Source of the DNA: Candidatus Omnitrophota bacterium
GTDB lineage: Bacteria; Omnitrophota; Gorgyraeia; Gygaellales; Profunditerraquicolaceae
Direction: 5' to 3'
Assembly (NCBI GenBank): GCA_028717885.1
Contig: JAQUMX010000004.1
Span: 2,145-66,144, forward strand
DNA length: 64,000 bases
The notes under the pieces: model-generated
The model's database searches: none
The model's input: the letters and a program-made list of their open reading frames with translations, nothing else
Told to the model about the DNA's origin: nothing
Shown here: piece after piece, positions 10,217-50,296 of the stretch
How positions within the stretch are numbered: the stretch's first letter is position 1
Layout of the letters: every line of letters starts with the position of its first letter
Program-made: the position numbers and the translations under genes

Positions 10217-10235
10217 TTTTCCTCCTCAGCAATAT

Positions 10236-14109: not shown

Positions 14110-14495
14110 TGGCTTTGCGCAGGTATGAGGGCTAAGAAATTAAGCATTGATTTCTCCCGGCTATTCTTACTCGGTAAAAACACCTTAAAATCCAACAACA
14201 ATAACCCTTGGTCGGCAGAATCCGATAAAGAACAATTCCAGTCAAACTGACTTTGCTGCAGTGTCGCGGCGCCTTCCTGGAACCTGGTTACGGAGGCAGA
14301 ATTTTTTTGTATTGCGCTAATCTCGAAGATTTTTTCTTCCGCTAAAAATGTAGCGGTAATCATATCCTGTGCCAGCCTTTGCGAAGCAAGTAATGTGACA
14401 AAGGAACGAAAAATAAAAATAATCGCCGTAGAAACTATGGCAATAGTGATCAAAACTTCAATAAGGGTAAACCCTTTATTTGACCTGGATTCCAC
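14106..14495 (-). CDS. gspI: Minor pseudopilin GspI-like
   Basis: 129 aa. Prepilin leader ..SNKG|FTLIEVLITIAIV. Confidence 0.75.
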   Translation of the reverse strand: MESRSNKGFTLIEVLITIAIVSTAIIFIFRSFVTLLASQRLAQDMITATFLAEEKIFEISAIQKNSASVTRFQEGAATLQQSQFDWNCSLSDSADQGLLLLDFKVFLPSKNSREKSMLNFLALIPAQSQ

Positions 14496-14934
14496 CTGAG
14501 GCTCCGCTAAAAATTAATGACAACTTATCCTTGTTCTGGTTTTCAAAAACTAAGCTCGCTTTACCGGTACTGGCATCCGGATAAAAGTAGACTCCTTGGT
14601 CCGCAGCAGGATCAAGCGAAACCTCTACTCCGCGCGGCGCCTGGTAGACCTTGGCAAACCTGCCGCTAAGATTCTTGAATTCCGCATTCTCCAAGGTTAA
14701 AGCCTGTAATTGGCCGCTTTCAATATTGACTGCCAGAAAATAGGTCTTCCCCTGCGAAATAGCGCTATCCTGCAAATAGCGGCTTAAGAAATAAATATCC
14801 TTGGAAAAATTTTGCAGTTCAAAACGGCAAAAGGTACTTTTGAAGCGCGGGAAGGCAACCGCCGAGGCGACCCCGATAATGATAATTACTATAAAAAGCT
14901 CGATAAAAGTAAAGCTTCTAATTTTGCGTATCAT
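14476..14934 (-). CDS. gspH: Minor pseudopilin GspH-like. The track ORF extends to 15039, but the likely start is ATG 14934
   Basis: MIRKIRS|FTFIELFIVIIIIG from ATG 14934. The longer ORF would overlap gspG by 120 nt. Ser rather than Gly sits at position -1 of the prepilin site. Confidence 0.7.
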   Translation of the reverse strand: MIRKIRSFTFIELFIVIIIIGVASAVAFPRFKSTFCRFELQNFSKDIYFLSRYLQDSAISQGKTYFLAVNIESGQLQALTLENAEFKNLSGRFAKVYQAPRGVEVSLDPAADQGVYFYPDASTGKASLVFENQNKDKLSLIFSGASGGIQVK

Positions 14935-15292
14935 TGCAGATTTGGCCTTCGGACTTGGTTTCATCAGGGCCGCTGGAGCAAAGCTTGTATTCTTTGCCGT
15001 CCGGAGAAGAATAGATATATGCTTTTCCCCATGGGTCAACAGGTTTTCTTTTCAGGTACGGCCCCTTTCCGGTTTTGGCGGTCAAATCATCGAGGCTGGC
15101 AGGGTATTTGCCGTTATCCATTTCATACATATCCAAGGCCGTAGCAATATTGGCATTAATATCCGCTTTAGCAGCAGCAATCCTGGCTTCTTCCGAACGG
15201 CCAACCAGACGCGGCATTACCATTGCCGCCAATACTCCGATAATAATTACCACTAACATTAACTCAATAAGCGTAAACCCTTTATTTCTCAT
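14918..15292 (-). CDS. gspG: Major pseudopilin GspG
   Basis: 124 aa. MRNKG|FTLIELMLVVIIIGVLAAMVMPRL..., DMYEMDNGKYPASLDDL and DPWGKAYIY are hallmark GspG motifs. Confidence 0.9.
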   Translation of the reverse strand: MRNKGFTLIELMLVVIIIGVLAAMVMPRLVGRSEEARIAAAKADINANIATALDMYEMDNGKYPASLDDLTAKTGKGPYLKRKPVDPWGKAYIYSSPDGKEYKLCSSGPDETKSEGQICNDTQN

Positions 15293-15314
15293 CGTATCCT
15301 CCTTTAGAGCTAAA

Positions 15315-16523
15315 TTATCTGGCCAGCAAATTAATTTGGAATATTGGTAAAAGCATGGAGATCACGATAAACCCTACGATTATCCCCATTACCAAAATAA
15401 TTACCGGTTCGAGCATCCGGGTTAAGTTCTTTATCGTGGAGTCCACTTCTTTTTCATAATCCTGCGAAATACGCAATAGCGCCTTCTCCAGCGTCCCGGT
15501 TTCTTCCCCTACACTCACAATACTATTTACCATGCTCGGGAATAATTTCGATTCGCTTAAACACCTGGACAAGCTTAAGCCGTCATTGATCCGTTCCCTA
15601 AACCGCAAAAGCTCGATCCGTAAGATTTCATTTTCCGCGAGGGCCGCGGAGATATCCAAAGAAGAAGTAATGGTAATGCCGCTAGAAAGCAGCAGCGCCA
15701 ACGTGTGCATCAGCCGGCTGATTTCGCTCTTTAAGATAATATCCCCGAAAAAAACTAATTTCAATTTTATCCTGTCCCAAACGATTTTATTGGCAACTAC
15801 TCGCTGTGAACGCCGAAACAAGAATACGCCGGTAATTACAATTGCCAGGATCATCCACCAATAAATGCGCAACGCATTAGAAGCTGCAATCAAGGCTCGC
15901 GTAGGAAGAGGTAACACCTGGCCCATATCTTCGAACATTACGGTTAAGCGCGGAATGACAAAGGTGAGCAGTACTATTATCGTGCCAATACCCACCAGCA
16001 TGATAAAAATAGGATAGATCAAAGCCGAACTCAGGGAATCGCTGAAATCCTGTTCTTTTTCCAAAAACCCGCTTAGGCGCTCCAGCGCCCCGTCGATATT
16101 CCCCCCCACCTCACCGGAATGGATGAGCTGTACATAGAGGTTAGAAAAAATTTGCGGGTGATAATTTAGGCTATCCGATAAAGATTTCCCGTCTTTGATC
16201 TTGCTTACGACGTCATTAATCACCGCCCTAAAATATTTATTCGTGGTCTGGCGGGAAATAATATTCAAACCATTGATGATATTGATTCCGGAACCGATCA
16301 GATTGGATAGCTGGCGGGTAAAAACTACGACTTCCTGTTTGCTGACCTTGCGAAAAGGAAAAAAACTTTTTCTTTCCAGGGAGATATTTAGTGCTTCGAT
16401 AGAAATCGGAAAGTAGCCTAATTTCGTAAGCTTGGTGACTGCTTCACTTTCTGATTCAGCTTCGATTTCCCCTTGGATAGTTTTATCGGGTGCAGGCTTG
16501 GCAATATAGATATATTGAGGCAT
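15315..16523 (-). CDS. gspF: T2SS/T4P inner-membrane platform protein GspF/PilC
   Basis: 402 aa with two T2SSF-type repeats and 3 TM segments. The start abuts the gspE stop. Confidence 0.9.
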   Translation of the reverse strand: MPQYIYIAKPAPDKTIQGEIEAESESEAVTKLTKLGYFPISIEALNISLERKSFFPFRKVSKQEVVVFTRQLSNLIGSGINIINGLNIISRQTTNKYFRAVINDVVSKIKDGKSLSDSLNYHPQIFSNLYVQLIHSGEVGGNIDGALERLSGFLEKEQDFSDSLSSALIYPIFIMLVGIGTIIVLLTFVIPRLTVMFEDMGQVLPLPTRALIAASNALRIYWWMILAIVITGVFLFRRSQRVVANKIVWDRIKLKLVFFGDIILKSEISRLMHTLALLLSSGITITSSLDISAALAENEILRIELLRFRERINDGLSLSRCLSESKLFPSMVNSIVSVGEETGTLEKALLRISQDYEKEVDSTIKNLTRMLEPVIILVMGIIVGFIVISMLLPIFQINLLAR

Positions 16524-36553: not shown

Positions 36554-37894
36554 TTATTTTACGGCAGCGCTATTTACCCCCAAAGGCACATACTCAATAC
36601 CCTGTTTTCTTTCAAGGCCACGATTAAAGAAAACCCTCCAACAATCAATAACGATCAGGCGGCGCCGGTTATTTTCGAAAACAGAATTTTTTATCCGCAT
36701 AAATTCCGGATCGGAATTAGCAATTACCGCTATATCGGAATTAAGGACTGCCTGCCTTGCCGACTTGGCATATGATACTTTTTTCCCAAAAACCATTTTC
36801 AGGTTATTCATTGCCAAAGGATCATAGAGAACAACTCTATACCCTGATTTGAGGAGCTTTTTTGCCAAAAAGACCGGCTGCGATTCTTCTATTACATTCG
36901 ACAATGGCTTATAAGATAACCCCAATATTCCTATACTATCACTCTTCTTGGCCTTTGCGGCAATAAGCTTAAACACTGATAGGATCACTTGCCGGTTAAA
37001 CTTATCCGTAGCCTTCGGTATCGTTGCCTCGATCCCCAATTTCCCGGCTACTGCAGACAGCGCTGAATTGTCTCGGGGAAAACACGGCCCTCCGAAACCT
37101 AACCCTCCTTTTAGATAACGGCTGCCGATACGCGAATCATAGCCCAGAGCCTTTGTTACAACATCTACATTACCGCCCGGTAGCTTTTGGGCCATAAAAG
37201 AAAGCATATTGGCAAAGGTAATCTTAGTAGTAACAAAAGAATTGACGGATATCTTTGTTAATTCAGCATTAATAAAGTCCATCCTGGCTATGGCCGGTTT
37301 ATTTTCGCAGATATTACGGTAAAATTTTTCCAGCAGGAAACCGGAATTTTTATCGGACTCGCCGATCAAAACAAAATCCGGATTAAGGAAATTTTTAATA
37401 ACTGTGCCCAGGGCGATAAATTCCGGATTATAGCACAAGCCAAAATCCTTAGCGCATTTCTTACCGGAAAATCTTTCCAGAAGCGGTTTTACGCAATTAT
37501 CCATTGTGCCCGGCAAAACCGTGCTGGTAAGAACAACGGTATGGTATGATTGTTTTTGTGCTAATGCTTTACCCAGCTCTTTTGCGGCCTTAGCTACAAA
37601 AGAAAGCGAAAATTCCCCATTTGCCAGAGAAGGCGTAGGCACCACAATGAAACTGATATCAGAATTTAATACTGCTGTGTAATAATCGGTGCTTGCAGAA
37701 ATTTTCTTTTTATAGCGGCGGAAGAATTGTTCCAGCCTCGGCTCAAATAAGGGGGCGTGCCCCTGATTAACAATCTTTACCCTCGCCGCGTCGTTGTCGA
37801 CCCCGATAACCTTAACCCCCTTGCTGGCTATGCCAGCCAACATACAAGCGCCTAACTTTCCGAGGCCGATAACAGAGACTCTCTTAATATCCAT
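36554..37894 (-). CDS. Nucleotide-sugar 6-dehydrogenase (UDP-glucose/GDP-mannose dehydrogenase family)
   Basis: 446 aa. VSVIGLGKLGACMLAG NAD fold and catalytic-Cys motif GGPCFPRD. Confidence 0.85.
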   Translation of the reverse strand: MDIKRVSVIGLGKLGACMLAGIASKGVKVIGVDNDAARVKIVNQGHAPLFEPRLEQFFRRYKKKISASTDYYTAVLNSDISFIVVPTPSLANGEFSLSFVAKAAKELGKALAQKQSYHTVVLTSTVLPGTMDNCVKPLLERFSGKKCAKDFGLCYNPEFIALGTVIKNFLNPDFVLIGESDKNSGFLLEKFYRNICENKPAIARMDFINAELTKISVNSFVTTKITFANMLSFMAQKLPGGNVDVVTKALGYDSRIGSRYLKGGLGFGGPCFPRDNSALSAVAGKLGIEATIPKATDKFNRQVILSVFKLIAAKAKKSDSIGILGLSYKPLSNVIEESQPVFLAKKLLKSGYRVVLYDPLAMNNLKMVFGKKVSYAKSARQAVLNSDIAVIANSDPEFMRIKNSVFENNRRRLIVIDCWRVFFNRGLERKQGIEYVPLGVNSAAVK

Positions 37895-37928
37895 ATAAAT
37901 ACCTTCCTTTTTTAAAACGACCGTGGTT

Positions 37929-38726
37929 TCAAAAAGTAACCGAGATCAGAGATGTAGAAAAACCTTTTCTGTAATTAACAAAACCTTCCAATTCACGAAG
38001 ATAGCATGCGTCCAAACATCCGGACAGCGACAAATATGGAAAATTGAGAGTCAACCTGCGCTTTCTCACATAATTCAATAACTCCGGAACTTCATCGTAA
38101 CCGACGATCCCGGCAGGCGGAGGCCCTTCCCACTGGACACAACAATGATCCTTGTAGTTTAACGGGTCATTTTTTTTAACCAGGAGGAAATCTTTTTTTG
38201 TCATCCCCGGAAAATAGGAAAAATCATGAAAAATGGCAAGGTGCCTTTTTTGCTTTAAAATAGGCGCGTATCTACCAAGAAAATGCCTGATGAGCTTTTT
38301 TCCGTGGATATCATATAGTATCAATATATCGTCGGCATTTAAGAAAGCTGAACCGTCATATTTTAAAAAATTCCTTGTGGTTATTTTGATCGCGGGGTTT
38401 AAATTATACCCTGCCTGTGCTTCGACCTTTTTTTTGCTTTCAAAAATGGTGTCTGCTAAACATACGGACTCAATCAACTCCGGCTGATAACCTAAGCTAT
38501 CGGCAGCAATACTAATAGTATAGAGGCTGTTGCCAAAAGCCCTGCCTAACTCCAGGATATATTTCGGCTTAAAATACAGGATCATCCCATAAAGCAGAAT
38601 AAATTCTGTTAATCCCCAGAAATCTTTGTGCCCGATCGCATCAAAGATTTTTTCGAATAGCTTTGCTTTATCTAAAATCGCCCGGTGGTTAGCTGCTAAA
38701 AAATTGGCAAACTCCTGATTCTCCAC
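37929..38726 (-). CDS. Hypothetical protein of the glycan locus (possible methyltransferase-like fold)
   Basis: 265 aa. ILELGRAFGNS resembles a degenerate SAM motif I. No confident assignment. Confidence 0.45.
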   Translation of the reverse strand: MENQEFANFLAANHRAILDKAKLFEKIFDAIGHKDFWGLTEFILLYGMILYFKPKYILELGRAFGNSLYTISIAADSLGYQPELIESVCLADTIFESKKKVEAQAGYNLNPAIKITTRNFLKYDGSAFLNADDILILYDIHGKKLIRHFLGRYAPILKQKRHLAIFHDFSYFPGMTKKDFLLVKKNDPLNYKDHCCVQWEGPPPAGIVGYDEVPELLNYVRKRRLTLNFPYLSLSGCLDACYLRELEGFVNYRKGFSTSLISVTF

Positions 38727-38747
38727 TGTAAATCGCTCCTCCCTTAT

Positions 38748-39764
38748 TTATCTTTCCGTCAACATTCTTTTTAAAATCATCTTTACTTGCTTACTGTCTT
38801 TAACTGAGAAATACCAATCGATGGTCCGGTGCAGGCCATCCATAAACTTCATCTGCGGTTCCCAGCCCAATAATTTTTTTGCCAGGGCATTATCAGCCAC
38901 CCTGTTGTACGGCCCGGTAGGCATAGAAGGCTGCAATATTATCCTGGCCTTGTGGCCGGTATAGCGCAATACTTCTTTCACTGCGCTAATCACGCTAGTC
39001 CGCTCCCGGGTGCCCAAGTTAATTGCTGTTGCATCGCTGATCTTCTCTGCTGCCAGTATCGTCCCTTCGACAATATCTCCGACATATGTCCAGTTGCGTA
39101 TTTGCTTACCTGTGCCCCAGACAAAAAAGGGATCCTGTTTTATAAAGGCCCTGGCAATCATTGCTATTACAGCATGATTTTCCACGCCCCGCTCACCATA
39201 CACTGTAAAATAACGGCAACTGGCTGACTTCATTCCATAATCCTTGTAATATGCCTTTAGCGTCATTTCTGCCATTAGCTTTGCCCATCCATACATATTA
39301 TCCGCCTCATAAGGCGGGCCGACCATTTTTTCGGTCAAATATAAGATTTTCTTTGGGTTCGTCTGAAGATAATTCGGATAAACGCACCCCGAAGAAGCAT
39401 ATACAACTTTCTCTATCCTTTGTTGCCTACAGGCGTCAAAGATCAGCCCATCCAGCATCAGATTGGAAGCACAGGCAGCTTGATGCAAATCCACATATCC
39501 CCTGCCACCATGGTCAGCAGCAAGATGAAATACTATATCGATCCCCTTGACCGCCTCTTTCGCAGCCTTACTTTCTTTAAGGTCCGCCTTGATAAATTTT
39601 ACTTTACCGGACTTCAGGTGCCCATCTATATTCTTTATCTTACCGCTGCTTAAATTATCTACCACCCTGACTTTGGCTTGGCGTTTAACCAAAGCATCTA
39701 CTAAATGCGACCCGATAAAAGAAGCGCCTCCGGTTACCAATACATTTTTTTTCGGCCAATTCAT
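38748..39764 (-). CDS. NAD-dependent nucleotide-sugar epimerase/dehydratase (extended SDR)
   Basis: 338 aa. VLVTGGASFIGSHLVDAL, and an S...YxxxK catalytic triad (YGWAKLMAE). Confidence 0.85.
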   Translation of the reverse strand: MNWPKKNVLVTGGASFIGSHLVDALVKRQAKVRVVDNLSSGKIKNIDGHLKSGKVKFIKADLKESKAAKEAVKGIDIVFHLAADHGGRGYVDLHQAACASNLMLDGLIFDACRQQRIEKVVYASSGCVYPNYLQTNPKKILYLTEKMVGPPYEADNMYGWAKLMAEMTLKAYYKDYGMKSASCRYFTVYGERGVENHAVIAMIARAFIKQDPFFVWGTGKQIRNWTYVGDIVEGTILAAEKISDATAINLGTRERTSVISAVKEVLRYTGHKARIILQPSMPTGPYNRVADNALAKKLLGWEPQMKFMDGLHRTIDWYFSVKDSKQVKMILKRMLTER

Positions 39765-39790
39765 CTTCTTCTCCTTTTTTGTATATGATC

Positions 39791-40660
39791 CTATCTTTTC
39801 TTATAGATAATTTCAGCAGGCTCTTTTACGATCGCCCATTTTTCCTCTCCAAAATCATAATTTAGCGCAGAATAACGGTACCTGATTAAGTTTTTCAATA
39901 CCGGTAGCCGCGAAATCCTATAGCGGGTTTCATGATAGAAAATCGAAAAAATATTGTTATGGTAATAATCATCGAGGATTTTTCTGCTGTTTTTGTTATA
40001 GTCAAGAATACCTGGCTCCTGCCCCTGATGGTGCCTGATTCCTGCTAGGGGGCTCCAGAGAGAATAGAGTGTGGCGTGTTGCCAGAATCTTAGCCACAGC
40101 TCGAAATCCGTAATCTTGATACTACTCTCAACGCGCCCGCCGGCACGCAACCAGAGAGATTTTTTCCAAAAAGTCGATTCCTGCTGGATACAGCCCCGAA
40201 TCGGAAGGTAGTGGCCGTCAAAGAAAGCTTCTTTGCTAAAACCGGTCCTTCTGTAATAGCGTAAAGGCATATCCCTGGTAATCCAGCCGAAAGGCGTGGC
40301 TGAAGTAAGCCACTCTACCTCGGGTAAAGCGCTGAATATTTGGCTGACTACTTCAAATGTCCAGGGAAAATATTTGTCCCCGCATCCAAGCCAGCCCATA
40401 ATCTCGCCTGTTGCATGCTGGAAGCCTTTGTTAAGAGTAAACCCCAGGCCCATATTCTTCTCATTGGTTAAACAAGTAATCCTTGAACTATATTTTTTAA
40501 TCACCTCTTGGGTTGCATCTTCGGAGCCATCATCCACAACGATATACTCAAAATTAGGGTACTCCTGGGATAATACGGACTGGATAGTGGCTTCCAGGTA
40601 ATCCGCCTGATTGAAAGACGGAGTTACGACCGAGATTTTAGGCTTTTTACGATCGCCCAT
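39791..40660 (-). CDS. GT2 paralog A of the tandem array
   Basis: 289 aa. KISVVTPSFNQADYLEATIQSVLSQ... The head resembles paralog F; the middle and tail are near-identical to paralog B. Confidence 0.85.
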   Translation of the reverse strand: MGDRKKPKISVVTPSFNQADYLEATIQSVLSQEYPNFEYIVVDDGSEDATQEVIKKYSSRITCLTNEKNMGLGFTLNKGFQHATGEIMGWLGCGDKYFPWTFEVVSQIFSALPEVEWLTSATPFGWITRDMPLRYYRRTGFSKEAFFDGHYLPIRGCIQQESTFWKKSLWLRAGGRVESSIKITDFELWLRFWQHATLYSLWSPLAGIRHHQGQEPGILDYNKNSRKILDDYYHNNIFSIFYHETRYRISRLPVLKNLIRYRYSALNYDFGEEKWAIVKEPAEIIYKKR

Positions 40661-41484
40661 TTTCCCTCTCCAAAATCATATTTTACCGCAGAATAACGGT
40701 ACCTGATTAAGTTTTTCAATACCGGTAGCCGCGAAATCCTATAGCGGGTTTCATGATAGAAAATCGAAAAAATATTGTTATGGTAATAATCATCGAGGAT
40801 TTTTCTGCATATTTCAAAATGGCTTAAGACAGCTCCCCCCTGGCTAGGATGGTGCCGCAACCCTGCCAAGGGACTCCAGAGAGAATAGAGTGTGGCGTAT
40901 TGCCAGAACCGCAGCCACAGTTCGAAATCCGGCATGATCTTTAAAGCGCTCTCAACGTGCCCTCTTGAGCGCAACCAGAGAGATTTTTTCCAAAAAGTCG
41001 ATTCCTGCTGGATACAGCCTCGGATAGGCAGATATTGCCCGTCAAAGAAAGCTTCCTTGCTAAAACCGGTCCTTCTGTAATAGCGTAAAGGCATATCCCT
41101 GGTAATCCAGCCGAAAGGCGTGGCTGAAGTCAGCCATTCTACCTCGGGTAAAGCGCTGAATATTTGGCTGACTACTTCAAATGTCCAGGGAAAATATTTG
41201 TCCCCGCAGCCAAGCCAGCCCATAATCTCGCCTGTTGCATGCTGAAAGCCTTTGTTAATCGCCTCCCCCCGCCCCTTATCCGGCTCACTTACCCAATAAC
41301 TAATCCGGTCAGAATATCTTCTGATGATTTCTACGCTGCCGTCGGTCGAGCCGCCGTCAATGATGATGTATTCCAGGTTAGGATAGTTCTGGGAGAGGAC
41401 AGATTTAATAGTCTCTTCCAAATACTCTGCCTGGTTAAAGGACGGAGTTACGATTGAGATCTTGGGGAAAACTTTTTCACGCAT
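40624..41484 (-). CDS. GT2 paralog B
   Basis: 286 aa. Its first ~115 aa are identical to paralog C; the tail matches paralog A. Confidence 0.85.
   Translation of the reverse strand: MREKVFPKISIVTPSFNQAEYLEETIKSVLSQNYPNLEYIIIDGGSTDGSVEIIRRYSDRISYWVSEPDKGRGEAINKGFQHATGEIMGWLGCGDKYFPWTFEVVSQIFSALPEVEWLTSATPFGWITRDMPLRYYRRTGFSKEAFFDGQYLPIRGCIQQESTFWKKSLWLRSRGHVESALKIMPDFELWLRFWQYATLYSLWSPLAGLRHHPSQGGAVLSHFEICRKILDDYYHNNIFSIFYHETRYRISRLPVLKNLIRYRYSAVKYDFGEGKWAIVKSLKSRS
41141..41470. repeat. 330-bp block, 100% identical to 41929-42258 (5' part of GT2 paralogs B and C)
   Basis: Compared base by base in the window; offset 788 bp. The identical 97-aa antisense ORFs in the track (41164-41457 and 41952-42245) independently show this. 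Confidence 0.95.
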
Positions 41485-42275
41485 TTTAGCAAAAAGGAAA
41501 TAATTTTTAAGCTGGCTCTATAGAGCCGCGACTTTAGAGTACGGGATTCAAAAGTAGTTAGTTTCCACTTATATTCTTCCCACCAGTCAAAAATTACTAC
41601 GTTGCACCTTACCATGCGCCTTTGCAAAGTTACCGGCCCGCTAGATTCTTTATGGCGAGCTAAGGCAGGACGGCTGCCGCCTAACGGAGTGGAAACATTA
41701 TTCAATCTCGCTAATTTCAATAACTCCAGCCAAAATTCAGCAGTTTCGCCATTAGGCAGGCTTTTATTCTTATGCATAGTAATATGATTATAAAGAGACA
41801 TCCTCCAGAAAGTCGATTCTCTGCTGATATGCTCTAGATTTATTCTATACAAATCCAGAGATTCATCTAAAAAACAAGGGCTGCCTTCTTTATTAAGCAT
41901 CATTTTAATGTCTGAAGTAAGCCACTTCACCTCGGGTAAAGCGCTGAATATTTGGCTGACTACTTCAAATGTCCAGGGAAAATATTTGTCCCCGCAGCCA
42001 AGCCAGCCCATAATCTCGCCTGTTGCATGCTGAAAGCCTTTGTTAATCGCCTCCCCCCGCCCCTTATCCGGCTCACTTACCCAATAACTAATCCGGTCAG
42101 AATATCTTCTGATGATTTCTACGCTGCCGTCGGTCGAGCCGCCGTCAATGATGATGTATTCCAGGTTAGGATAGTTCTGGGAGAGGACAGATTTAATAGT
42201 CTCTTCCAAATACTCTGCCTGGTTAAAGGACGGAGTTACGATTGAGATCTTGGGGAAATTATTTTGTTTTGTCAT
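41448..42275 (-). CDS. GT2 paralog C
   Basis: 275 aa. The head is identical to B. The C-terminal half is strongly divergent, retaining only the ESTFWR motif. Confidence 0.8.
   Translation of the reverse strand: MTKQNNFPKISIVTPSFNQAEYLEETIKSVLSQNYPNLEYIIIDGGSTDGSVEIIRRYSDRISYWVSEPDKGRGEAINKGFQHATGEIMGWLGCGDKYFPWTFEVVSQIFSALPEVKWLTSDIKMMLNKEGSPCFLDESLDLYRINLEHISRESTFWRMSLYNHITMHKNKSLPNGETAEFWLELLKLARLNNVSTPLGGSRPALARHKESSGPVTLQRRMVRCNVVIFDWWEEYKWKLTTFESRTLKSRLYRASLKIISFLLKCVKKFSPRSQS
41929..42258. repeat. Second copy of the 330-bp identical block
   Basis: See 41141-41470. Confidence 0.95.
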
Positions 42276-43098
42276 TTTTATATTTAATCACCCTCCTGTC
42301 TGCCAAAAATAAAATCCTGCATAAATTTGGCCTGCGAATCAGCATCCTGGGAATAAATAAACTTTTTTCGGATGGCATCCTGCCAAAACGGCTTGTAAAT
42401 ATCCTCTTCTCCTCTGCGAGGCATGCGTTATATTGATCGGAAGTAGCTTGGCCTTTATGCCGGCGAAAAATCCCTAACGGGACAGTAGCCGAATACAATT
42501 CACTCATCTCCCAAAATCGCGACCATAATTCAAAATCCGGCATAACGCGGGAAGCCTCATTTATATACCCGCCGGCCCTCTCCCACAAGGGCCGCCGCCA
42601 AAAAGTCGATTCCTGCGAAATGACATTATCGCTGGCAAAAAGGTAAAAACCTTTTTTAAAGCCGCTTCTGCCGAAATTTACAAAGGTAAGCTCCTTATGC
42701 GCCAGGTTGTCTATTTCCAGAGAAACTCTCCTGGCAGTAGTCAGCCACTCAACTTTCGGATAGGCGCTAAAAATCTCGGATACTGCTTTAAACGCCCAGG
42801 GAAAATATAAATCATCTGAATTTAACCAGGCCATAATCTCGCCCGTAGAATGCTTAAATCCTTTGTTCAAAGCATCACCATGCCCCTTATCCGGCTCACT
42901 AACCCAGTAGCTTAAGCGATCAGCATATTTCTTAATAATATCAATGCTCCCGTCGGTTGATCCGCCGTCAATAATGATATATTCCAGGTTAGGGTAGTTT
43001 TGGGAAAGGACGGATTTTATAGTCTCCTCCAGGTACTTTCCCTGGTTAAAAGACGGGGTGACGATAGAGATTTTAGGAAAATTATTTTGTTTTGTCAT
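42259..43098 (-). CDS. GT2 paralog D
   Basis: 279 aa. The first ~118 aa are identical to E apart from the first few residues. The tail is related to E and F. Confidence 0.85.
42737..43077. repeat. 341-bp block, 100% identical to 43557-43897 (5' part of GT2 paralogs D and E)
   Basis: Compared in 10-mer blocks; offset 820 bp. A further shared segment cgccggccctctcccacaagggccgccgccaaaaagtcgattcctgc occurs at the same offset (about 42570 and 43390). Confidence 0.95.
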
Positions 43099-43912
43099 TT
43101 TTGTATTCGATCGTTCTTTTTCTATTCCTGAAAAACAGGTAATAGAAATAAGGCCTCTTCAATAAAAACTGGGGCAGAAACGTATAAAATTTCCCGGGCA
43201 AATGGCCGGCCCGCTCTTTAAATATCTCTCTGCACATATCACAACAATAATTAAATAAACGGCTGGTAACTTGTTCTTCATGTTTCCTAAATGCCGCCAG
43301 GGAAGTTGTAACAGAATATAATTCCGCCTTTTCGCTAAACCGCGACCATAATTCATAATCAGGCACAATCTTTTCTTTATCAATATGCCCGCCGGCCCTC
43401 TCCCACAAGGGCCGCCGCCAAAAAGTCGATTCCTGCTGCAGGCAGTTAACGGTTTCAGGCAGGTAAAAACCTTTTTTAAAACCGCTTGACCCAAAGTTCA
43501 GGAAAATAAACCTGCAGGTTTCATTGCCATTTTTATCAACTACAACCTTTTTCTCCGTAGTCAGCCACTCAACTTTCGGATAGGCGCTAAAAATCTCGGA
43601 TACTGCTTTAAACGCCCAGGGAAAATATAAATCATCTGAATTTAACCAGGCCATAATCTCGCCCGTAGAATGCTTAAATCCTTTGTTCAAAGCATCACCA
43701 TGCCCCTTATCCGGCTCACTAACCCAGTAGCTTAAGCGATCAGCATATTTCTTAATAATATCAATGCTCCCGTCGGTTGATCCGCCGTCAATAATGATAT
43801 ATTCCAGGTTAGGGTAGTTTTGGGAAAGGACGGATTTTATAGTCTCCTCCAGGTACTTTCCCTGGTTAAAAGACGGGGTGACGATAGAGATTTTAGGGTA
43901 CACTTTATTCAT
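43082..43912 (-). CDS. GT2 paralog E
   Basis: 276 aa; see paralog D. Confidence 0.85.
43557..43897. repeat. Second copy of the 341-bp identical block
   Basis: See 42737-43077. Confidence 0.95.
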
Positions 43913-44864
43913 CTAATTCACGATTAAGCCAAACTTGCACACCATCATCAAAATAAATAGCGCCATACGCAGTATCGCTTGTCCTTTTGCACGGATAATC
44001 GTAAAGGCATTTCCATCCTAAATTATTAAAAAGGGCGCGTAAGCCTGCTTCGATCTCCGGGCTATGTGTGCCGATATGCACACGCTTGACCTTTTGAGCT
44101 ATCTCATTTTTGGCTGAACTAAATACCTTACTCTCCGCACCCTGGATATCTGCATGAATAAGATCTACGCAACCGCAAGGAGCAAGCAATGATTTTAGGC
44201 AAACTGCCCTTACCTTCTTTTCCTCTATAAAACCATGCACCGCTTTGCCGCTCTTCGAATCAGTAAGCGTTAATTTTCTCTTCCCCGGATGCCGATTCTT
44301 TCCAGAAACAAATAAAAAAATGCCTTCTGTTAGATGGCGCAGATGCACCAATTTGTTGACTACGGCATTTCCATAATTAGCAGGGAATCCTATTTGAAAA
44401 AAAACGTTTCCATCTTTATCATAAACTGCGGCATTAATCAGCCGGTGCTTCTTAGGGTCAATATGATTATCGATAAAATTTTGCTTTAACCATGCGAAAT
44501 GCGTCTCTTCTGCCTCTATCCCTGTAAGATAGCACGGGAAGCCTTCTCCGTGGAAGCTTCGCACAGCCAGATAGGCATTTACCAGGTGGAAGCCAAAACC
44601 TGCTCCCAACTCAAACATGGTAAACCTCTTTTTAGCCTGAACAACACTTTCTAGAACGCTAATCCACTCGAAATAACCTTCGGAAAAGTCCGGGTATCTG
44701 GCACAACCACGCTCTTGCTGCCTATCGGTATGCGCTAATTTTTCAGCATAAAAATAATCGAGATATTCTTTTCTTACGATTGCTCCGAGAAAATTAGTGC
44801 AAAACTGCGCTCCGGGATTAAGCCTGACTTGCTTAAAGTTCGCAAAAACCTCGTGATGCTGCAT
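43905..44864 (-). CDS. FkbM-family methyltransferase
   Basis: 319 aa. [10 protein letters not shown] and [16 protein letters not shown] are FkbM-type motifs. Confidence 0.7.
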
Positions 44865-44873
44865 TAAAATCCT

Positions 44874-45848
44874 TTATCTTCTTAAAAACCCTAAACCTTT
44901 GGACAACAACATTGCCCTCAATAACCTTAGCCTGCCAACGAATGATATATTCTGTGGTTTAAATATCTCCTCGTCTTTATATCCTAATTGTTTGCAGGCA
45001 GAACGATAAGTACCGTATTCATAAATAGTATTATAATTACAGCCGCAATATAAGTATGGGCATTTTTCCATTCCCGGAGGAAAAAATTTATCTTTATTCA
45101 CCGAAAAACCATCCAGGAAATTCCCCATTTTTAACCTGGGTTTATCGTAACGGCTATTGCACCAAAGGCCGTAATAGAAAGAGGCATCCGCAAGAATGAT
45201 GTAATAAAAATACCCCAATGCGCATCTTTTCCCTAAACTTGTTACAAAATTTCTTGCAGCTTCAACTTCTTTTTCTTTACTGATTTTTCCGGTTACGGTC
45301 CAGGGAGGTATGTAACTTTGAAAGAATATTCTTTGGCCTGTTTTGCTCTCGATTTCGCATAGCCTCTTTCTGTCAGCGATAGATAGGCCATAATCTACCT
45401 GCGCCAGCGATAACGCAGTAATATTTTTAAGTTTATTTATCCTCGAAATTAAAAATTCAACATCGGCATCGCTCCTATACTTGATATGCAAACTGGCCAC
45501 GATTTGTGACAGCTTCGGCACATGGTCCATTATCCTGTCTATGGAAATAAGGTTGGTAATCAGCCTGGTTTCGATATTGGGTACTGCACTCAATATTTCG
45601 ATAACTTCAACGATATTCCTGGCCAGCAGAGGTTCCCCTCCGGAAAAGACTACTATAACTTTCTTAGCGAATTGGCTTATTTCGGCGATTTTCCTTGCGA
45701 TCTCAATTTCGCGCCCGGGAGAATAGCTTATTTTAGTCCGTTCTTTCTGCGAATATTCCCCCTTGTTGACACAGTAACTACAATTAAGGTTACAATCGTC
45801 AATTACCGCCCAATCAAAAAACAATAAATCTTTTTTTTCCGGCGTCAT
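44874..45848 (-). CDS. Radical SAM protein
   Basis: 324 aa. CNLNCSYC (CxxxCxxC) near the N-terminus, a GGEPLL motif, and a Cys-rich C-terminal region (CPYLYCGC). Confidence 0.8.
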   Translation of the reverse strand: MTPEKKDLLFFDWAVIDDCNLNCSYCVNKGEYSQKERTKISYSPGREIEIARKIAEISQFAKKVIVVFSGGEPLLARNIVEVIEILSAVPNIETRLITNLISIDRIMDHVPKLSQIVASLHIKYRSDADVEFLISRINKLKNITALSLAQVDYGLSIADRKRLCEIESKTGQRIFFQSYIPPWTVTGKISKEKEVEAARNFVTSLGKRCALGYFYYIILADASFYYGLWCNSRYDKPRLKMGNFLDGFSVNKDKFFPPGMEKCPYLYCGCNYNTIYEYGTYRSACKQLGYKDEEIFKPQNISFVGRLRLLRAMLLSKGLGFLRR

Positions 45849-46753
45849 AGTTGGAAAACTTTTTTTCTTAAACCCCTCAATAAACCGGCCATTCTTCTTA
45901 AGTTAAACATTAGCGAATACCATTTGATGGCCCCATGGCTATAGTCGATTATCCTTTTTTTATTTCTTAATAAGGCAATTGTGTTAAAAACCGGGACCCT
46001 GATCTTAATAGATTGGACAAGGCGTATAATCCTAGGAGGGAAATTACCGTTGTGTTTGCGCCATACTGCCATCGCTTGTTCACAACAGGCACCAAAGATC
46101 CGGCTTGACTTCTGGTTGGCATGCCAACGAAAAATCCCTAAGGGTACAGGCACGCTATAAAGATCGGCTGCTTCCCAAAACCTTGACCAAAGCTCAAAAT
46201 CAGGGACATTCAAAAAATCCTTATCGATATATCCTCCCGTTTTTTCCCATAATGAACGCCGCCAAAAAGTTGATTCCTGCGTAATGCAATTTCCGCTATC
46301 CGGCAGATAGAGGCCGTCTTTATAGGCTTTTTTCCCAAGGTTCAAAAATACTCTCTGCTTAAAATCCTTTCCGCTTGAGCCAACCACAGTCGGGGTTTCC
46401 GTAGTCAACCATTCTACATGCGGATATTTAGTAAAAATTGCGGATATCGTGGCTAAAGTCCAGGGGAAATATAAATCATCTGCATTAAGCCACCCCATAA
46501 TCTCACCGCAGGAAGATTGAAAACCTTTATTCAAAGTAAATCCCAACCCCATATTTTTTTCATTAGCCAAAAAACTAATCCGGTGGCCGTACTTACTTAT
46601 AATCTCCCGGCTGTTATCTGTAGAACAATCTTCAACGACAATATATTCAAGATTAGGATAAGACTGGGAGAGAACCGAACATATGGCCTCTTCCAGATAC
46701 TGCGCCTGGTTAAAAGACGGGGTGACGATGGAAATTTTGATACTATGAGCCAT
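45845..46753 (-). CDS. GT2 paralog F (sixth, more divergent member of the family)
   Basis: 302 aa. [26 protein letters not shown]...QESTFWRR...[10 protein letters not shown]. Confidence 0.85.
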   Translation of the reverse strand: MAHSIKISIVTPSFNQAQYLEEAICSVLSQSYPNLEYIVVEDCSTDNSREIISKYGHRISFLANEKNMGLGFTLNKGFQSSCGEIMGWLNADDLYFPWTLATISAIFTKYPHVEWLTTETPTVVGSSGKDFKQRVFLNLGKKAYKDGLYLPDSGNCITQESTFWRRSLWEKTGGYIDKDFLNVPDFELWSRFWEAADLYSVPVPLGIFRWHANQKSSRIFGACCEQAMAVWRKHNGNFPPRIIRLVQSIKIRVPVFNTIALLRNKKRIIDYSHGAIKWYSLMFNLRRMAGLLRGLRKKVFQL

Positions 46754-46759
46754 GGAACA

Positions 46760-48160
46760 CTAAGCCTCGTTTTTCTTGAAAAGAAAAACACCGACGCCGA
46801 ATATTATCCACATCTGGCTGATATTTAAAAAAAACAGGTTATAAGAATCGAATACCCCGTTAAATAAAAAAGCGATCGTGGCGCCAATAATACCGATATG
46901 GGATGGCAAGTCCATCGAAACTCTCTTCTTTAGAGGCGCAAAGATTTTCTTGAACCATGTAAAAACAAACCAGAGAAAACCAAACAGGCCAATGAGCCCC
47001 TGTGCCAGGCCGATCGACAAATAAATATTGTGCGCCGTAGTAAAAAGAGAGCCAAATTTATAATACTCTTCAAAGCCTATTCCCATAGGATTTGAAAAAA
47101 CCTCCACCGCAGCAGATTTCCAGATAACAAAACGATCAAGTAAGCTTATATCTTGAGAAACATTTTTCAGGGATTCGATTCTTCTCCATAATTCCACCCC
47201 TAAAAAATCGGCATTAACTATAAATAAACACCCGATGGCAAAAAGCAGAATTGCAAAAGTAACCCTTAATAAATGCGGCCTGGAATATCTTATAGTCAGG
47301 ATAAAAACAGCTACCAAGCCTAAAATTGCACCAAACCAACAACTACGGCTTCCTGTCAAGACCAAAAGATAGGAAAGCGCGCATAACGCACCTAGCCCAA
47401 TATACCTTTTAAAACGCGAAGGGCTTAACAGGAACAAGGAAAACGATAGAACGATCAAACTGCTTAAATAATCAGCCAGCGCCAAAGCATGGACAGCAAA
47501 TATGTTATTCGCAAATTCAATCTTGCCCCCCAGCCTTAAAGTCTCCACGGAATCATTGAGCATATCCGGGCTATACTTAAAAATATACCAATAACGGCTC
47601 CCTAATACGCAGCCTCCGATAATCATCGCAATAATGCAATTATTCAAATGTGATTTATTTTTTATAAGTTTCGAACAAAGAAAATACGTGATGAGGCCGT
47701 AAAAACAATTCTCCCTGACTAAATCGTAGGCAAGCTCCCTTCCTGCCGGCTGCCCGGACCCTAAGAGAAATGCAGCCATTCCTCCCAGAAAAAATAAAAA
47801 TAAAGGCAAAAAAAGAGGAACCGTTACAATGTAGCGCAGATCTTCTTTGGAACGGACCGACAGCAAAGCTTTAACTAACCAACCGATAAAACCTGCATAG
47901 AGCCCAACTTCAACTAATGATGCATCATGCAAGAGGTCTTGCAGCGGCCCCAGCTGCAGATACCGCGGGAACCAGAAGAAAGCGATAAACAAATAGAGAA
48001 AGAAAATTTCCTTTGAATACAATAAAACCAAAACCGCTATAAAAAAACCGAATAACGCAAAACGTAAGCTTCTGGCATAAGATACCCAGACAAAAGCAAT
48101 AAACAACGCGGCAATAATACTAAAAATAAGGTTAAGATTCTTCCTGCGTGTTTCAATCAT
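46760..48160 (-). CDS. O-antigen ligase/polymerase (Wzy_C-type) polytopic membrane protein
   Basis: 466 aa with at least 10 TM segments and the LTGSRSCWFGAILGL motif. Confidence 0.75.
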   Translation of the reverse strand: MIETRRKNLNLIFSIIAALFIAFVWVSYARSLRFALFGFFIAVLVLLYSKEIFFLYLFIAFFWFPRYLQLGPLQDLLHDASLVEVGLYAGFIGWLVKALLSVRSKEDLRYIVTVPLFLPLFLFFLGGMAAFLLGSGQPAGRELAYDLVRENCFYGLITYFLCSKLIKNKSHLNNCIIAMIIGGCVLGSRYWYIFKYSPDMLNDSVETLRLGGKIEFANNIFAVHALALADYLSSLIVLSFSLFLLSPSRFKRYIGLGALCALSYLLVLTGSRSCWFGAILGLVAVFILTIRYSRPHLLRVTFAILLFAIGCLFIVNADFLGVELWRRIESLKNVSQDISLLDRFVIWKSAAVEVFSNPMGIGFEEYYKFGSLFTTAHNIYLSIGLAQGLIGLFGFLWFVFTWFKKIFAPLKKRVSMDLPSHIGIIGATIAFLFNGVFDSYNLFFLNISQMWIIFGVGVFLFKKNEA

Positions 48161-48162
48161 TA

Positions 48163-49431
48163 TTATGAATTAACCTCGGTAACCGTCCATTCATGGTCCA
48201 TAAGCATCACTCCAACTCCGGAATCCGGCAATTTGCTATTCGCAAAAAATGAACCCACTTCCACATCGAATTTTCCGGCATCATGAAGCATATCCGAAAT
48301 TACCCCTTCCACCCGGCAAAAAACGTTAAAAGTATAGCTGCCGGGCACAAGCGGCAATTTCTTTATCCTGCACCTTACTATTCCCCGCGATGGGGCCTGC
48401 GGCCAGATTTCCCCAGAAACCCGGTTAGCCAAATCAGTAATATTATTACCCAAAAAATCATTAAGCACAAAAGAAACCGATACATTTTGCAATCTTTCAT
48501 GCGGATGAGAAACATACTCTACGGCTATCACCGCCTCCTCCCCGCTTCGAAAAGCCTTTACGCTTTGCCCTTGTGCATTTTCGAGGTGATAGTTTACAAA
48601 TTTCATTACCCCGCTGCCGGAACGATCAGAACGGCTGCCTAAGTCGGTCTCCATAAGCTGGTAGATGCGGTTAATATATTCATTAATTACCGCTTCCTTA
48701 TTGCCTTCTGCCAGGATCCTCCCTTTGTCTAATAATATCGCGCGTGAACAAAGCGCATTGATCACCGACATGTTATGGCTGATAAACAATACAGTCCTTT
48801 CCTTCTTAATCTCCTCCCCTATCTTTTCGAAGCATTTTTTCTGAAAACGAGTATCGCCAACGCTTAATATCTCATCGATCAAGAGGATATCCGTATCCAA
48901 GTGAGCCGCGACAGCAAATGCCAAGCGCACATACATGCCATTTGAATAGAATTTAATTGGGGTATCCAAAAATTCGCCTATCCCGGAAAATTCCACTATT
49001 TCCTCAAATCTACGGCTGATTTCTCTGTGCTTCATCCCCAAAATTATGCCATTAAAATAAATATTTTCCCGGCCTGTTAAATCGGGATGAAACCCTGTGC
49101 CCACTTCCAATAAAGAGCCGACCCGGCCGTGCACCCTGACACATCCGGAAGTCGGCTTGGTGATCTTTGACATAATTTTAAAAAGTGTGGTCTTGCCGGC
49201 GCCATTGCGCCCAATTATCCCTACAACTTCACCCTGTTTTATCTCGAAAGAGACATTATCCAGAGCCCTCACCATGCCTGTGCCCTGCCCATAGGCAGAA
49301 GGCCGCCGGTTTATAGGCTTTAAAAACAATCTCGATAAACTCTCCTTTATGTTTAACGGGCTATTTTCGGTATACTTACGAAGATTATATTCCTTCCCAA
49401 GATTCTCGGCTACAACCGCCAACTGTCCCAT
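48163..49431 (-). CDS. wzt: Polysaccharide ABC exporter ATP-binding protein with a C-terminal Wzt_C-like carbohydrate-binding domain
   Basis: 422 aa. Walker A GRNGAGKTT, signature YSNGMYVRL, and a ~160-aa beta-rich extension beginning DRSGSGVMKFVNYHL. Confidence 0.85.
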   Translation of the reverse strand: MGQLAVVAENLGKEYNLRKYTENSPLNIKESLSRLFLKPINRRPSAYGQGTGMVRALDNVSFEIKQGEVVGIIGRNGAGKTTLFKIMSKITKPTSGCVRVHGRVGSLLEVGTGFHPDLTGRENIYFNGIILGMKHREISRRFEEIVEFSGIGEFLDTPIKFYSNGMYVRLAFAVAAHLDTDILLIDEILSVGDTRFQKKCFEKIGEEIKKERTVLFISHNMSVINALCSRAILLDKGRILAEGNKEAVINEYINRIYQLMETDLGSRSDRSGSGVMKFVNYHLENAQGQSVKAFRSGEEAVIAVEYVSHPHERLQNVSVSFVLNDFLGNNITDLANRVSGEIWPQAPSRGIVRCRIKKLPLVPGSYTFNVFCRVEGVISDMLHDAGKFDVEVGSFFANSKLPDSGVGVMLMDHEWTVTEVNS

Positions 49432-49450: not shown

Positions 49451-50296
49451 CTAAACTATATCCGCAAACGAATCTTCTGTTTTTAAAAAATAAAGTAACC
49501 CGCCGAGGAATATAAGAAATAAAATTATGAACGCCAGCGGAAAACTATCCGTAAAGATCAATGGTGTACCTAAGAAACTCCAGCGAAAACCATCGATAAT
49601 CACTGCCATGGGGTTAAGATAATACAAGAATTTCCAATGTGCAGGGATGATTTTTGCCGTATAAGCTACCGGCGAACAATAAAACCAGATTTGAATCAGA
49701 AAAGGAACGGCATTACGGATATCCCGGTATCTGACATTCAAGGCAGATAACCAGAAACTTACCCCCATGGCCAAAATTATTCCTAACAACAGGAACAGCG
49801 GAAGATAAACAATTCCGGGGCTGATTCTTATGTTGTAAATAAATAGAATAACTACAAAAAACGCCGTTGTAATACAAAAATCTATCAGGTTTTTTAAAAT
49901 AATGTAGGTGGGCAGGATAATCCTGGGAAAATAAACTTTTGTCACCAGGTCCCGGCTCATCACTAAACTATCTACGGACATTGAGGTGCTATTCGCAAAT
50001 AAGTTCCAGGGCAGGAATGCACACAAAACAATAACTAAATAAGGGTGGCTCCCGGAAGAACCCAGCCCGAGAAAACGGCCGAATATAACGCTGAATATCA
50101 GAGAGGAAAGGAACGGCTGAATAATTACCCAGCTGACACCGATTAAGGTTTGCCGGTACTTAATTTTCAGGTCTCTCAAGATCAGAAAAAGAAGCAATTC
50201 GCGATAGGACCAAATCTCTCCGGCACTCACAGAAAGGCTGTCTCTTTCAGAACAAATTCTACGCATACCGGATTTTTCTTGAAGATGGACGCTCAT
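49451..50296 (-). CDS. wzm: Polysaccharide ABC exporter permease (ABC-2 type)
   Basis: 281 aa. RDLKIKYRQTLIGVSWVIIQP is the typical Wzm/TagG N-terminal motif. 6 TM segments. Confidence 0.85.
   Translation of the reverse strand: MSVHLQEKSGMRRICSERDSLSVSAGEIWSYRELLLFLILRDLKIKYRQTLIGVSWVIIQPFLSSLIFSVIFGRFLGLGSSGSHPYLVIVLCAFLPWNLFANSTSMSVDSLVMSRDLVTKVYFPRIILPTYIILKNLIDFCITTAFFVVILFIYNIRISPGIVYLPLFLLLGIILAMGVSFWLSALNVRYRDIRNAVPFLIQIWFYCSPVAYTAKIIPAHWKFLYYLNPMAVIIDGFRWSFLGTPLIFTDSFPLAFIILFLIFLGGLLYFLKTEDSFADIV

Follow-up and report, generated by a model that had tools for sequence, protein, structure and literature searches.

Concerted evolution of bacterial paralogs by gene conversion is known from tufA/tufB and from the rRNA operons, and recombination between lgt paralogs accounts for the reduced lgt gene content of Neisseria strain 15253. 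Here, we describe a further example, an array of six paralogous genes for family 2 glycosyltransferases (GT2), designated A to F, in a stretch of 64,000 nt from Candidatus Omnitrophota bacterium (contig JAQUMX010000004.1 of assembly GCA_028717885.1, forward-strand positions 2,145 to 66,144). This whole stretch is referred to below as the window, and the N- and C-terminal parts of each gene as its head and tail. The genes are very probably old tandem paralogs whose heads have been repeatedly overwritten by gene conversion between neighbors, while their tails have diverged and are orthologously conserved.

In Helicobacter pylori, intragenomic recombination between jhp0562 and beta-(1,3)galT produces functional chimeric alleles, and one of the copies has been lost in some strains, as recounted in PMC5381349, citing Pohl, Kienesberger and Blaser 2012; intragenomic conversion between babA and babB is also known in this species (PMC2806470). 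The array resembles jhp0562/galT in that adjacent homologous glycan glycosyltransferase genes with high nucleotide identity recombine within one genome. However, jhp0562/galT consists of two lipopolysaccharide genes of a host-adapted pathogen, for which functional chimeras were shown by experiment, whereas the present case comprises five to six GT2 genes of an uncultured Omnitrophica and is known from sequence alone, with the exchange confined to the N-terminal sub-domain and the tails conserved. As in concerted evolution in general, copies within one genome are closer to each other than to their orthologs, synonymous sites are homogenized, and the tracts end where homology ends. Unlike in the general case, only one sub-domain is homogenized and the rest of each gene behaves as an independent ortholog, in an arrangement of a common module plus a specific module.

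The Neisseria lgt locus (lgtA-E, lipooligosaccharide glycosyltransferases) is also a tandem array of paralogous glycan glycosyltransferase genes whose content differs between strains; strain 15253 has only lgtA and lgtE (PMC2192810). In contrast to the genes described here, the lgt genes belong to different glycosyltransferase families. They are phase-variable by poly-G tracts; homopolymer switches were not noticed in the present array, although no search aimed at them was made. The closest structural counterpart is WrtF, a GT2 O-polysaccharide fucosyltransferase of Rhizobium tropici (PDB 9omh-9omn), which likewise has a GT-A core followed by a C-terminal helical region. It differs in that the motifs found here are NSDD, NADD and GCGD, that the sequence similarity covers only residues ~9-110, and that WrtF has not been described in a paralog array. 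A literature search for concerted evolution of bacterial glycosyltransferases returned mostly eukaryotic cases. The process is a known one, with no new mechanism, exemplified here in a new phylum; what is distinctive is a sub-domain-limited conversion tract across five genes.

Organization of the array

The six genes, all on the minus strand, are located at the following positions of the window.

39791..40660, minus strand: GT2 gene A, 289 aa; first ~76 residues of the old F class, followed by a GCGD segment, middle and tail like those of B
40624..41484, minus strand: GT2 gene B, 286 aa; head identical to that of C, tail of A/B type
41448..42275, minus strand: GT2 gene C, 275 aa; head identical to that of B, tail of an old distinct C type
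42259..43098, minus strand: GT2 gene D, 279 aa; head identical to that of E, tail of D type
43082..43912, minus strand: GT2 gene E, 276 aa; head identical to that of D, tail of E type
45845..46753, minus strand: GT2 gene F, 302 aa; a separate older paralog

All six are full-length open reading frames (ORFs) in one co-directional, overlapping gene string, and all match the Pfam family Glycos_transf_2 (PF00535; E 1e-24 to 1e-27, 86.5-97.5 bits, gathering cut-off 23.3 bits). Neighbors within A-E overlap by 17-37 nt, with start-to-start distances of 824, 788, 823 and 820 nt. A sequence-only reading of this DNA had recognized six GT2 ORFs of one family, five of them consecutive with a period of ~790-835 bp, and the ORFs, the Pfam matches and the spacing of 788-824 nt confirm this.

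Conversion tracts within the array

Nucleotide alignment of the genes revealed exact and near-exact tracts in the heads of B to E, and further tracts between A and B.

41141..41470, minus strand: B copy of the 330-nt exact B/C head tract
41929..42258, minus strand: C copy of the 330-nt exact B/C head tract
42737..43077, minus strand: D copy of the 341-nt exact D/E head tract
43557..43897, minus strand: E copy of the 341-nt exact D/E head tract
42568..42616 in D and 43388-43436 in E, minus strand: second D/E conversion patch, 49 nt exact, over a 15-residue motif
40233..40434 in A and about 41057-41258 in B, minus strand: A/B(/C) conversion tract 1, 4 mismatches in about 200 nt
39824..39987 in A and 40645-40808 in B, minus strand: A/B conversion tract 2, at the 3' end, 164 nt with 3 mismatches, 122 nt exact

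Beyond the head tracts, identity in the codon alignment drops to about 30-45% for B/C and to about 40-75% for D/E. Between A and B it is 60.9% in alignment columns 1-228, 97.5% in columns 229-350, 75-90% in the middle and 53-66% in columns 631-690. The longest stretch of matching polymorphic sites in each pair was assessed by permutation (5000 permutations, floor p = 2e-4). The runs of the pairs AB, BC and DE (100, 171 and 173 sites, respectively) reached the floor, as did the AC run of 37 sites, for which the global p was 1.4e-3; no other pair was globally significant. Neither this test nor the nucleotide alignment revealed a recent conversion tract common to F and any of the genes A-E.

The 5' end of tract 1, which is the breakpoint in A, was placed by the maximum-chi2 method at window position 40434 (chi2 83), 2 nt from the position near 40432 given by the sequence-only reading. 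That reading had also proposed that A combines an F-like head with the middle and tail of B, that B and C have a common head, and that D and E have another. The nucleotide alignment agrees with this mosaic, with one qualification concerning F: the 5' part of A is 65.8% identical to F and about 61% identical to B-E, so that the nucleotide closeness to F is marginal. A and F have in common an old head class, marked by the NEKNMGLGFTLNKGFQ motif, with no sign of recent exchange.

Two further features of the tracts were set aside. Two identical plus-strand ORFs of 97 aa, 41164-41457 and 41952-42245, run opposite to the heads of B and C; they are by-products of the exact repeat and not genes. The sequence ATGGGCGATCGTAAAA in the tail of A was considered as a relic of A's own start, left by a duplication unit offset from the gene borders. 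This was rejected because the tail codons KWAIVK are conserved, and the overlapping start codon of A merely falls inside them.

Heads group by genome and tails by ortholog

Relatives of the array were found in a second lineage, represented by L002 (European Nucleotide Archive; genes E2-D2) and by L087, a contig of the metagenome-assembled genome (MAG) GCA_028688215.1. The gene order in L087 is the end of an FkbM gene, E3, D3, C3 and a partial B3, i.e. E-D-C-B as in the window. Two further contigs, L088 and L089, carry the genes A4 and A5, respectively. A4 is the ortholog of A, and A5 and B3 are ortholog-like counterparts of B.

Head identity (nt 22-360) within genomes is 100% for D/E and 97.6% for E2/D2, compared to 86.1% and 86.7% for the orthologs E/E2 and D/D2. 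The tails show the reverse: 58.4% for E/D and 57.8% for E2/D2 within genomes, and 82.3% for E/E2 and 84.5% for D/D2 between orthologs. Paralogs are thus closer than orthologs in the heads and more distant in the tails, and the same holds for B/C. The quartet-informative sites, listed as grouping by genome : by ortholog : third topology, were distributed as follows.

D/E with L002: head 42:0:0, tail 15:124:1
D/E with L087: head 38:2:0, tail 21:124:1
B/C with L087: head 30:5:0, tail 8:155:5

Synonymous divergence (dS) of the heads in the window genome is 0.035 for both D/E and B/C, all of it in the first few codons, while that of the orthologs is 0.7-1.2; 36 of the 47 differences between the E and E2 heads lie at third codon positions. 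Head homogenization therefore reaches synonymous sites and is not explained by purifying selection. The ratio of nonsynonymous to synonymous divergence (dN/dS) between orthologs is 0.05-0.10 in the heads and 0.09-0.23 in the tails, the value of 0.23 being that of the C/C3 tail, and all genes, C with its odd tail included, are under purifying selection.

In neighbor-joining trees the heads formed the clusters (D,E)(D3,E3), (B,C,A5,C3,B3) and (A,A4)+(F,P0011), and the tails formed (C,C3,L006-g3), (D,D3), (E,E3), (F,P0011) and (A,B,B3,A4,A5,L006-g2). The two trees are strongly discordant; the sequence-only reading had named concordant phylogenies for all segments as the outcome that would speak for simple duplication and divergence. 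Since tails group by ortholog and heads by genome, the duplications are older than the split of the lineages, and the heads have been homogenized later, independently in each lineage, which by these sequence comparisons is concerted evolution by gene conversion. The lineages that have kept the tail types and the order E-D-C-B(-A) are separated by a dS of about 0.5-1.1.

An unrelated Logan contig, L006, carries a four-gene array followed by an epimerase gene. Its genes are g1 (F/D/E-type tail, motif NSDD), g2 (A/B-type tail, DCGD), g3 (C-type tail, ACGN) and g4 (GCGD), and no identity tracts were found between the copies of this array. The occurrence of the same tail types without identity tracts indicates that the tail types are ancient. 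The tail of C is strongly divergent, as the sequence-only reading had stated, but it is no novelty of this locus, because tails of the same type are present in C3 of L087 and g3 of L006.

These data also bear on an alternative history without gene conversion, in which the genes arose by recent tandem duplications and their tails then diverged very fast. The tandem layout and the regular spacing would fit such a history. However, tail orthology places the duplications before the lineage split, the heads are younger than that split, and the dN/dS of the tails is well below 1. We regard this explanation, contradicted by the quartet site counts, as extremely improbable.

Interpretation and reality of the repeats

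The comparisons establish recombination between genes of the array, as read from the aligned sequences. The N-terminal ~110-residue nucleotide-binding sub-domain has been overwritten repeatedly, and independently in different lineages. The C-terminal halves (the acceptor side, with the catalytic ESTFW region and the helical end) have diverged and are orthologously conserved under purifying selection. The most plausible route would be ordinary RecA-type homologous recombination, in which direct repeats spaced by about 800 bp undergo non-reciprocal gene conversion. The tracts would extend as far as homology allows, being stopped on the 5' side by the tail of the preceding gene and on the 3' side just past the EVEWLT strand. 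The A chimera and the A/B patchwork would go back to older events of the same kind. Most likely, the same or similar nucleotide-sugar donors serve all copies, which would transfer the sugars to different acceptors in the assembly of one glycan.

Several points weigh against this reading. In enzymes of the GT-A fold, contacts to the donor sugar come from the C-terminal half as well. We infer both the dependence on RecA and the choice of non-reciprocal conversion over a double unequal crossover. The assignment of one donor and different acceptors draws on general knowledge of GT-A enzymes and on the WrtF study (PMC12595478). L002 and L087 effectively amount to one comparison lineage, and L088 and L089 are short contigs. 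All sequences come from metagenome assemblies. Short-read assemblers have difficulty with exact repeats of 330-341 nt, and an identity of about 97-99% could be raised to 100% where the assembler collapses bubbles.

It was therefore considered that the mosaic is an assembly artefact, made up of collapsed or mis-joined repeats or of mixed strains. MAGs and metagenome contigs are the only source of the data, their assembly is prone to errors at exact repeats that exceed the k-mer size, and the L002 and L087 contigs stop at or near repeat boundaries. On the other hand, the same array, whose proteins are annotated as those of Candidatus Omnitrophica MAGs, occurs in two assemblies: contig JAQTVE010000053.1 (L001) of the second MAG assembly, GCA_028706935.1, equals window positions 36887-47022 except for 3 mismatches near the end. 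In the independent lineage, where the heads are not identical (97.6%, longest identical run 116 nt) and the repeat can therefore be resolved, the genes follow the same order and concerted evolution is evident all the same. The ORFs of all genes are intact and under purifying selection. Complete D, E, B, C and A proteins were found on NCBI contigs only, and F, which has a unique head, was also present on four Logan contigs, from four sequencing runs. Two of these, L170 and L171, end at window position 43869, 29 nt into the exact D/E repeat, where a k=31 graph would be expected to break off on reaching a true repeat. An artefact is accordingly very unlikely.

Further patchwork and candidate hybrids

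Besides the exact tracts of the window, older or partial patchwork was observed in the relatives. The B3 and C3 heads of lineage 2 are partly homogenized, with identities of 90-95%, then 65-80%, then 95-100%. In B3, a head of the B type and a middle of the A type occur together with a D3-like patch, 95-98% identical at columns 121-210, and C3 and D3 have their first 60 nt in common. A4 (L088, JGI 3300013137) and A5 (L089, JGI 3300013123) are 100% identical at columns 241-480 and from 691 to the end, with 51-78% identity in the head and 63-65% at columns 601-660, which repeats the A/B pattern of the window. The chimeric architecture of A is also present in A4; the A chimera is therefore old and predates the A/A4 split.

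L088 has the order B-type tail, A4, epimerase. The order in L089 (positions 1-1603) is C-type tail, one GT2 gene, epimerase; the GT2 gene is of B type up to about column 690 and 100% identical to A4 from there on. It is either a natural B/A deletion hybrid or a short-read assembly chimera formed via the identical tract. Both hybrid candidates, the L089 gene and B3, lie on short or truncated short-read contigs.

These structures raise the question of whether the identical heads and the A/B tracts promote unequal crossing-over, with deletion or duplication of whole units at appreciable frequency and resulting glycan heterogeneity within populations. The direct exact repeats of 330-341 nt about 800 bp apart would be suitable substrates, and the L089 arrangement is the product expected from a B/A crossover in the 3' identical tract. 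B3 resembles a B/A hybrid with a different junction, and the distant relative L003-L005 has a single family gene beside the epimerase gene. However, L089 is a 1.6-kb short-read contig that may be chimeric via the same tract, and L087 stops inside B3, so that an A3 could follow downstream. The five-gene order also agrees between the two assemblies of the window lineage, as does the E-D-C-B order of L087. We consider variation of this kind unlikely.

An extension of this idea is a modular system of one head and many tails, in which frequent conversion keeps a common donor-binding module identical in neighboring genes, and this identity in turn leads to gain and loss of whole tail modules at high frequency by unequal crossing-over. 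We consider this doubtful. If true, it would constitute a repeat-mediated on/off switch for each sugar addition, requiring neither a dedicated recombinase nor homopolymer tracts. Natural populations of Omnitrophica would thereby become heterogeneous in their surface glycans, which might for instance serve against phage or in attachment to hosts or prey, and the L089 hybrid and B3 would be such variants from the wild.

Fold and DXD-position motif

The AlphaFold model of D (predicted local distance difference test, pLDDT, 93.4; predicted template modeling score, pTM, 0.92) has a GT-A fold with a Rossmann-like nucleotide-binding sub-domain. Its top Foldseek matches in the PDB are all GT2 enzymes of the GT-A fold, namely WrtF (template modeling score 0.69-0.71, 23% identity), followed by 6p61, SpsA and K4CP. 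In this model the converted head, residues ~7-118, runs from beta1 to alpha4 and includes the DXD position (residues 93-96), and the tract stops at the strand formed by residues 118-121 (EWLT). The proposal that the conversion boundary coincides with the end of the GT-A nucleotide-binding sub-domain is thus upheld, with the tract end at ~118. A PDB sequence search gave similarity limited to residues ~9-110 and found no solved relative of the tail at the sequence level.

None of the NCBIfam equivalogs (TuaG, WcaE, PgaC, EpsE and others) was reached; the best match, TuaG, scored 66.8 bits against a cut-off of 400 and covered the head only. As these matches are below threshold and restricted to the head, no specific enzyme name can be assigned.

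The motif at the DXD position is NSDD or NADD in D, E and F, and GCGD in A, B and C (residues ~92-95). The recurrence of GCGD-type motifs in at least 16 of 75 homologs indicates that GCGD is a conserved variant and not a product of decay. The WrtF study (PMC12595478) reports active relatives with the GADD and N(A/S)GD variants of DXD; according to it, divergence linked to acceptor specificity is found in the C-terminal region, in contrast to the conserved GT-A part. Over the 75 homologs, in a crude comparison that does not correct for phylogeny, the xCGx motif occurs with A/B/C-type tails in 15 of 16 cases and NxDD with D/E/F-type tails in 42 of 54. Between the GCGD and N[SA]DD classes, identity in the DXD-proximal segment (columns 271-350) amounts to 55-70%. 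The two motif classes suggest different handling of metal or donor.

This coupling bears on the proposal of the sequence-only reading that the locus is a generator of glycan diversity, in which recombination shuffles donor-binding heads and acceptor-binding tails into new donor/acceptor combinations. The recombination itself is real, A does combine an F-class N-terminus with a B-class remainder, and B3 (with its head, patch and middle of three types) and the L089 gene (B-type to about column 690, identical to A4 beyond) are candidate hybrids. However, the dominant effect of the exchange is homogenization. Most tracts replace a head by a near-identical head and leave the protein class unchanged, and the DXD-proximal segment, coupled to the tail among the homologs, was seen in neither the window nor the L087 array to cross from one tail class to the other. 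The A chimera is older than the divergence of A and A4, and the tail types and gene order have been kept, under purifying selection, across lineages as far apart as given above. A generator of new donor/acceptor combinations is thus improbable, although, going by the candidate hybrids B3 and L089, units may occasionally be reshuffled or lost, and we retain gene conversion of the heads between old paralogs with conserved tails.

Distribution in the A-F subfamily

The subfamily to which A-F belong is large, with more than 8000 matches at E<1e-10 in many phyla. Its genes are often in tandem: at least two copies are present in 42 of the 86 loci examined, including the first six anchor loci. In L003-L005, a relative farther removed, the family is represented by one gene, which adjoins the epimerase gene. 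The best 80 loci from a search of genome contigs did not include the window's own species, and a search of metagenome contigs with C yielded one full-length C-type relative only (L090, 58%) and no further close strains.

Tracts 84-92% identical between copies were noted in five loci:

L007: 5164-6598
L125: 369-645/2947-3223
L126: 1-216/1980-2195
L134: 3743-3945/4558-4760
L165: 1278-1432/2178-2332

These loci belong to unrelated organisms, e.g. a Methylomirabilota MAG. The location of the tract at the 5' end of a family gene was checked for the L126 and L134 pairs and for one L125 copy, and was not established for L007 and L165. Head-limited homogenization may be common in the A-F GT2 subfamily.

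Polysaccharide locus and neighboring genes

The array lies in a co-directional O-antigen-like polysaccharide locus of ~30 kb, spanning about 25.9-54.5 kb of the window. The locus encodes a Wzz-like/tyrosine-kinase-like protein, two Wzy_C proteins, a tetratricopeptide repeat protein, a short-chain dehydrogenase/reductase-type epimerase/dehydratase, a nucleotide-sugar dehydrogenase, methyltransferases, further GT2 and GT4 enzymes, a Bac_transf initiating transferase, a beta-barrel protein and a Wza-like exporter. The following genes are located between E and F, elsewhere in the locus, or beside the epimerase gene.

43905..44864, minus strand: FkbM-family methyltransferase-like gene, between E and F, outside the repeat family
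44874..45848, minus strand: radical S-adenosylmethionine (SAM) gene, between E and F, overlapping F by 4 nt
49451-50296: Wzm (ABC2_membrane)
48163-49431: Wzt (ABC_tran and Wzt_C)
37929-38726, minus strand: 265-aa ORF, between the epimerase and sugar dehydrogenase genes

Wzm and a Wzt with a glycan-binding domain are encoded beside glycosyltransferases, as in O-polysaccharide loci of the ATP-binding cassette (ABC) transporter type. ABC-pathway and Wzy-pathway-like parts are mixed within ~25900-54540, and the assignment to one pathway is not clean; the locus may serve two glycans or a hybrid pathway. The 265-aa ORF had no Pfam or NCBIfam match. It occupies the same position in L001 and L088, and L003 has there a 336-aa protein with a weak Methyltransf_24 match.

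In the Omnitrophica relative L003, single proteins of 614-616 aa (positions 5439-7283 and 14137-15987) consist of a GT2 and a radical SAM (and SPASM) domain. In view of these fused proteins, F and the adjoining radical SAM gene may be the split form of a GT2-radical SAM fusion.

No recombinase, invertase, transposase or reverse transcriptase was found among ~40 ORFs of at least 150 aa in 20.9-63.3 kb of the window. Within this range, systems of programmed diversification such as shufflons, invertible cassettes, diversity-generating retroelements and silent cassettes were not recognized, and all six copies are full-length ORFs.

Outside the locus, a stop-free frame of at least 3408 aa (2-10225, minus strand) begins with the signal-peptide-like start MKKHLLNSKRGLAFIISVILL and runs off the left end of the window. 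About 100 nt upstream of it lies a c-di-GMP-I-GGC riboswitch (RF03167; 10327-10409, minus strand; 62.3 bits, E 2.5e-12). From its sequence, the giant frame looks like a surface or adhesin-like protein under the control of the cyclic di-GMP (c-di-GMP) riboswitch.

Implications

The array is a clean natural case of gene conversion limited to one structural sub-domain of an enzyme, with the tract ending exactly where the nucleotide-binding half of a GT-A glycosyltransferase gives way to the acceptor-side half. For annotators and phylogeneticists it carries a warning, in that whole-gene trees of such GT2 paralogs are meaningless. The junctions of the natural chimeras could serve as a guide for the engineering of GT2 enzymes by domain swapping. 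For the organism, the array indicates that a polysaccharide locus can grow by tandem duplication, keeping a common donor module while its acceptor modules are diversified.

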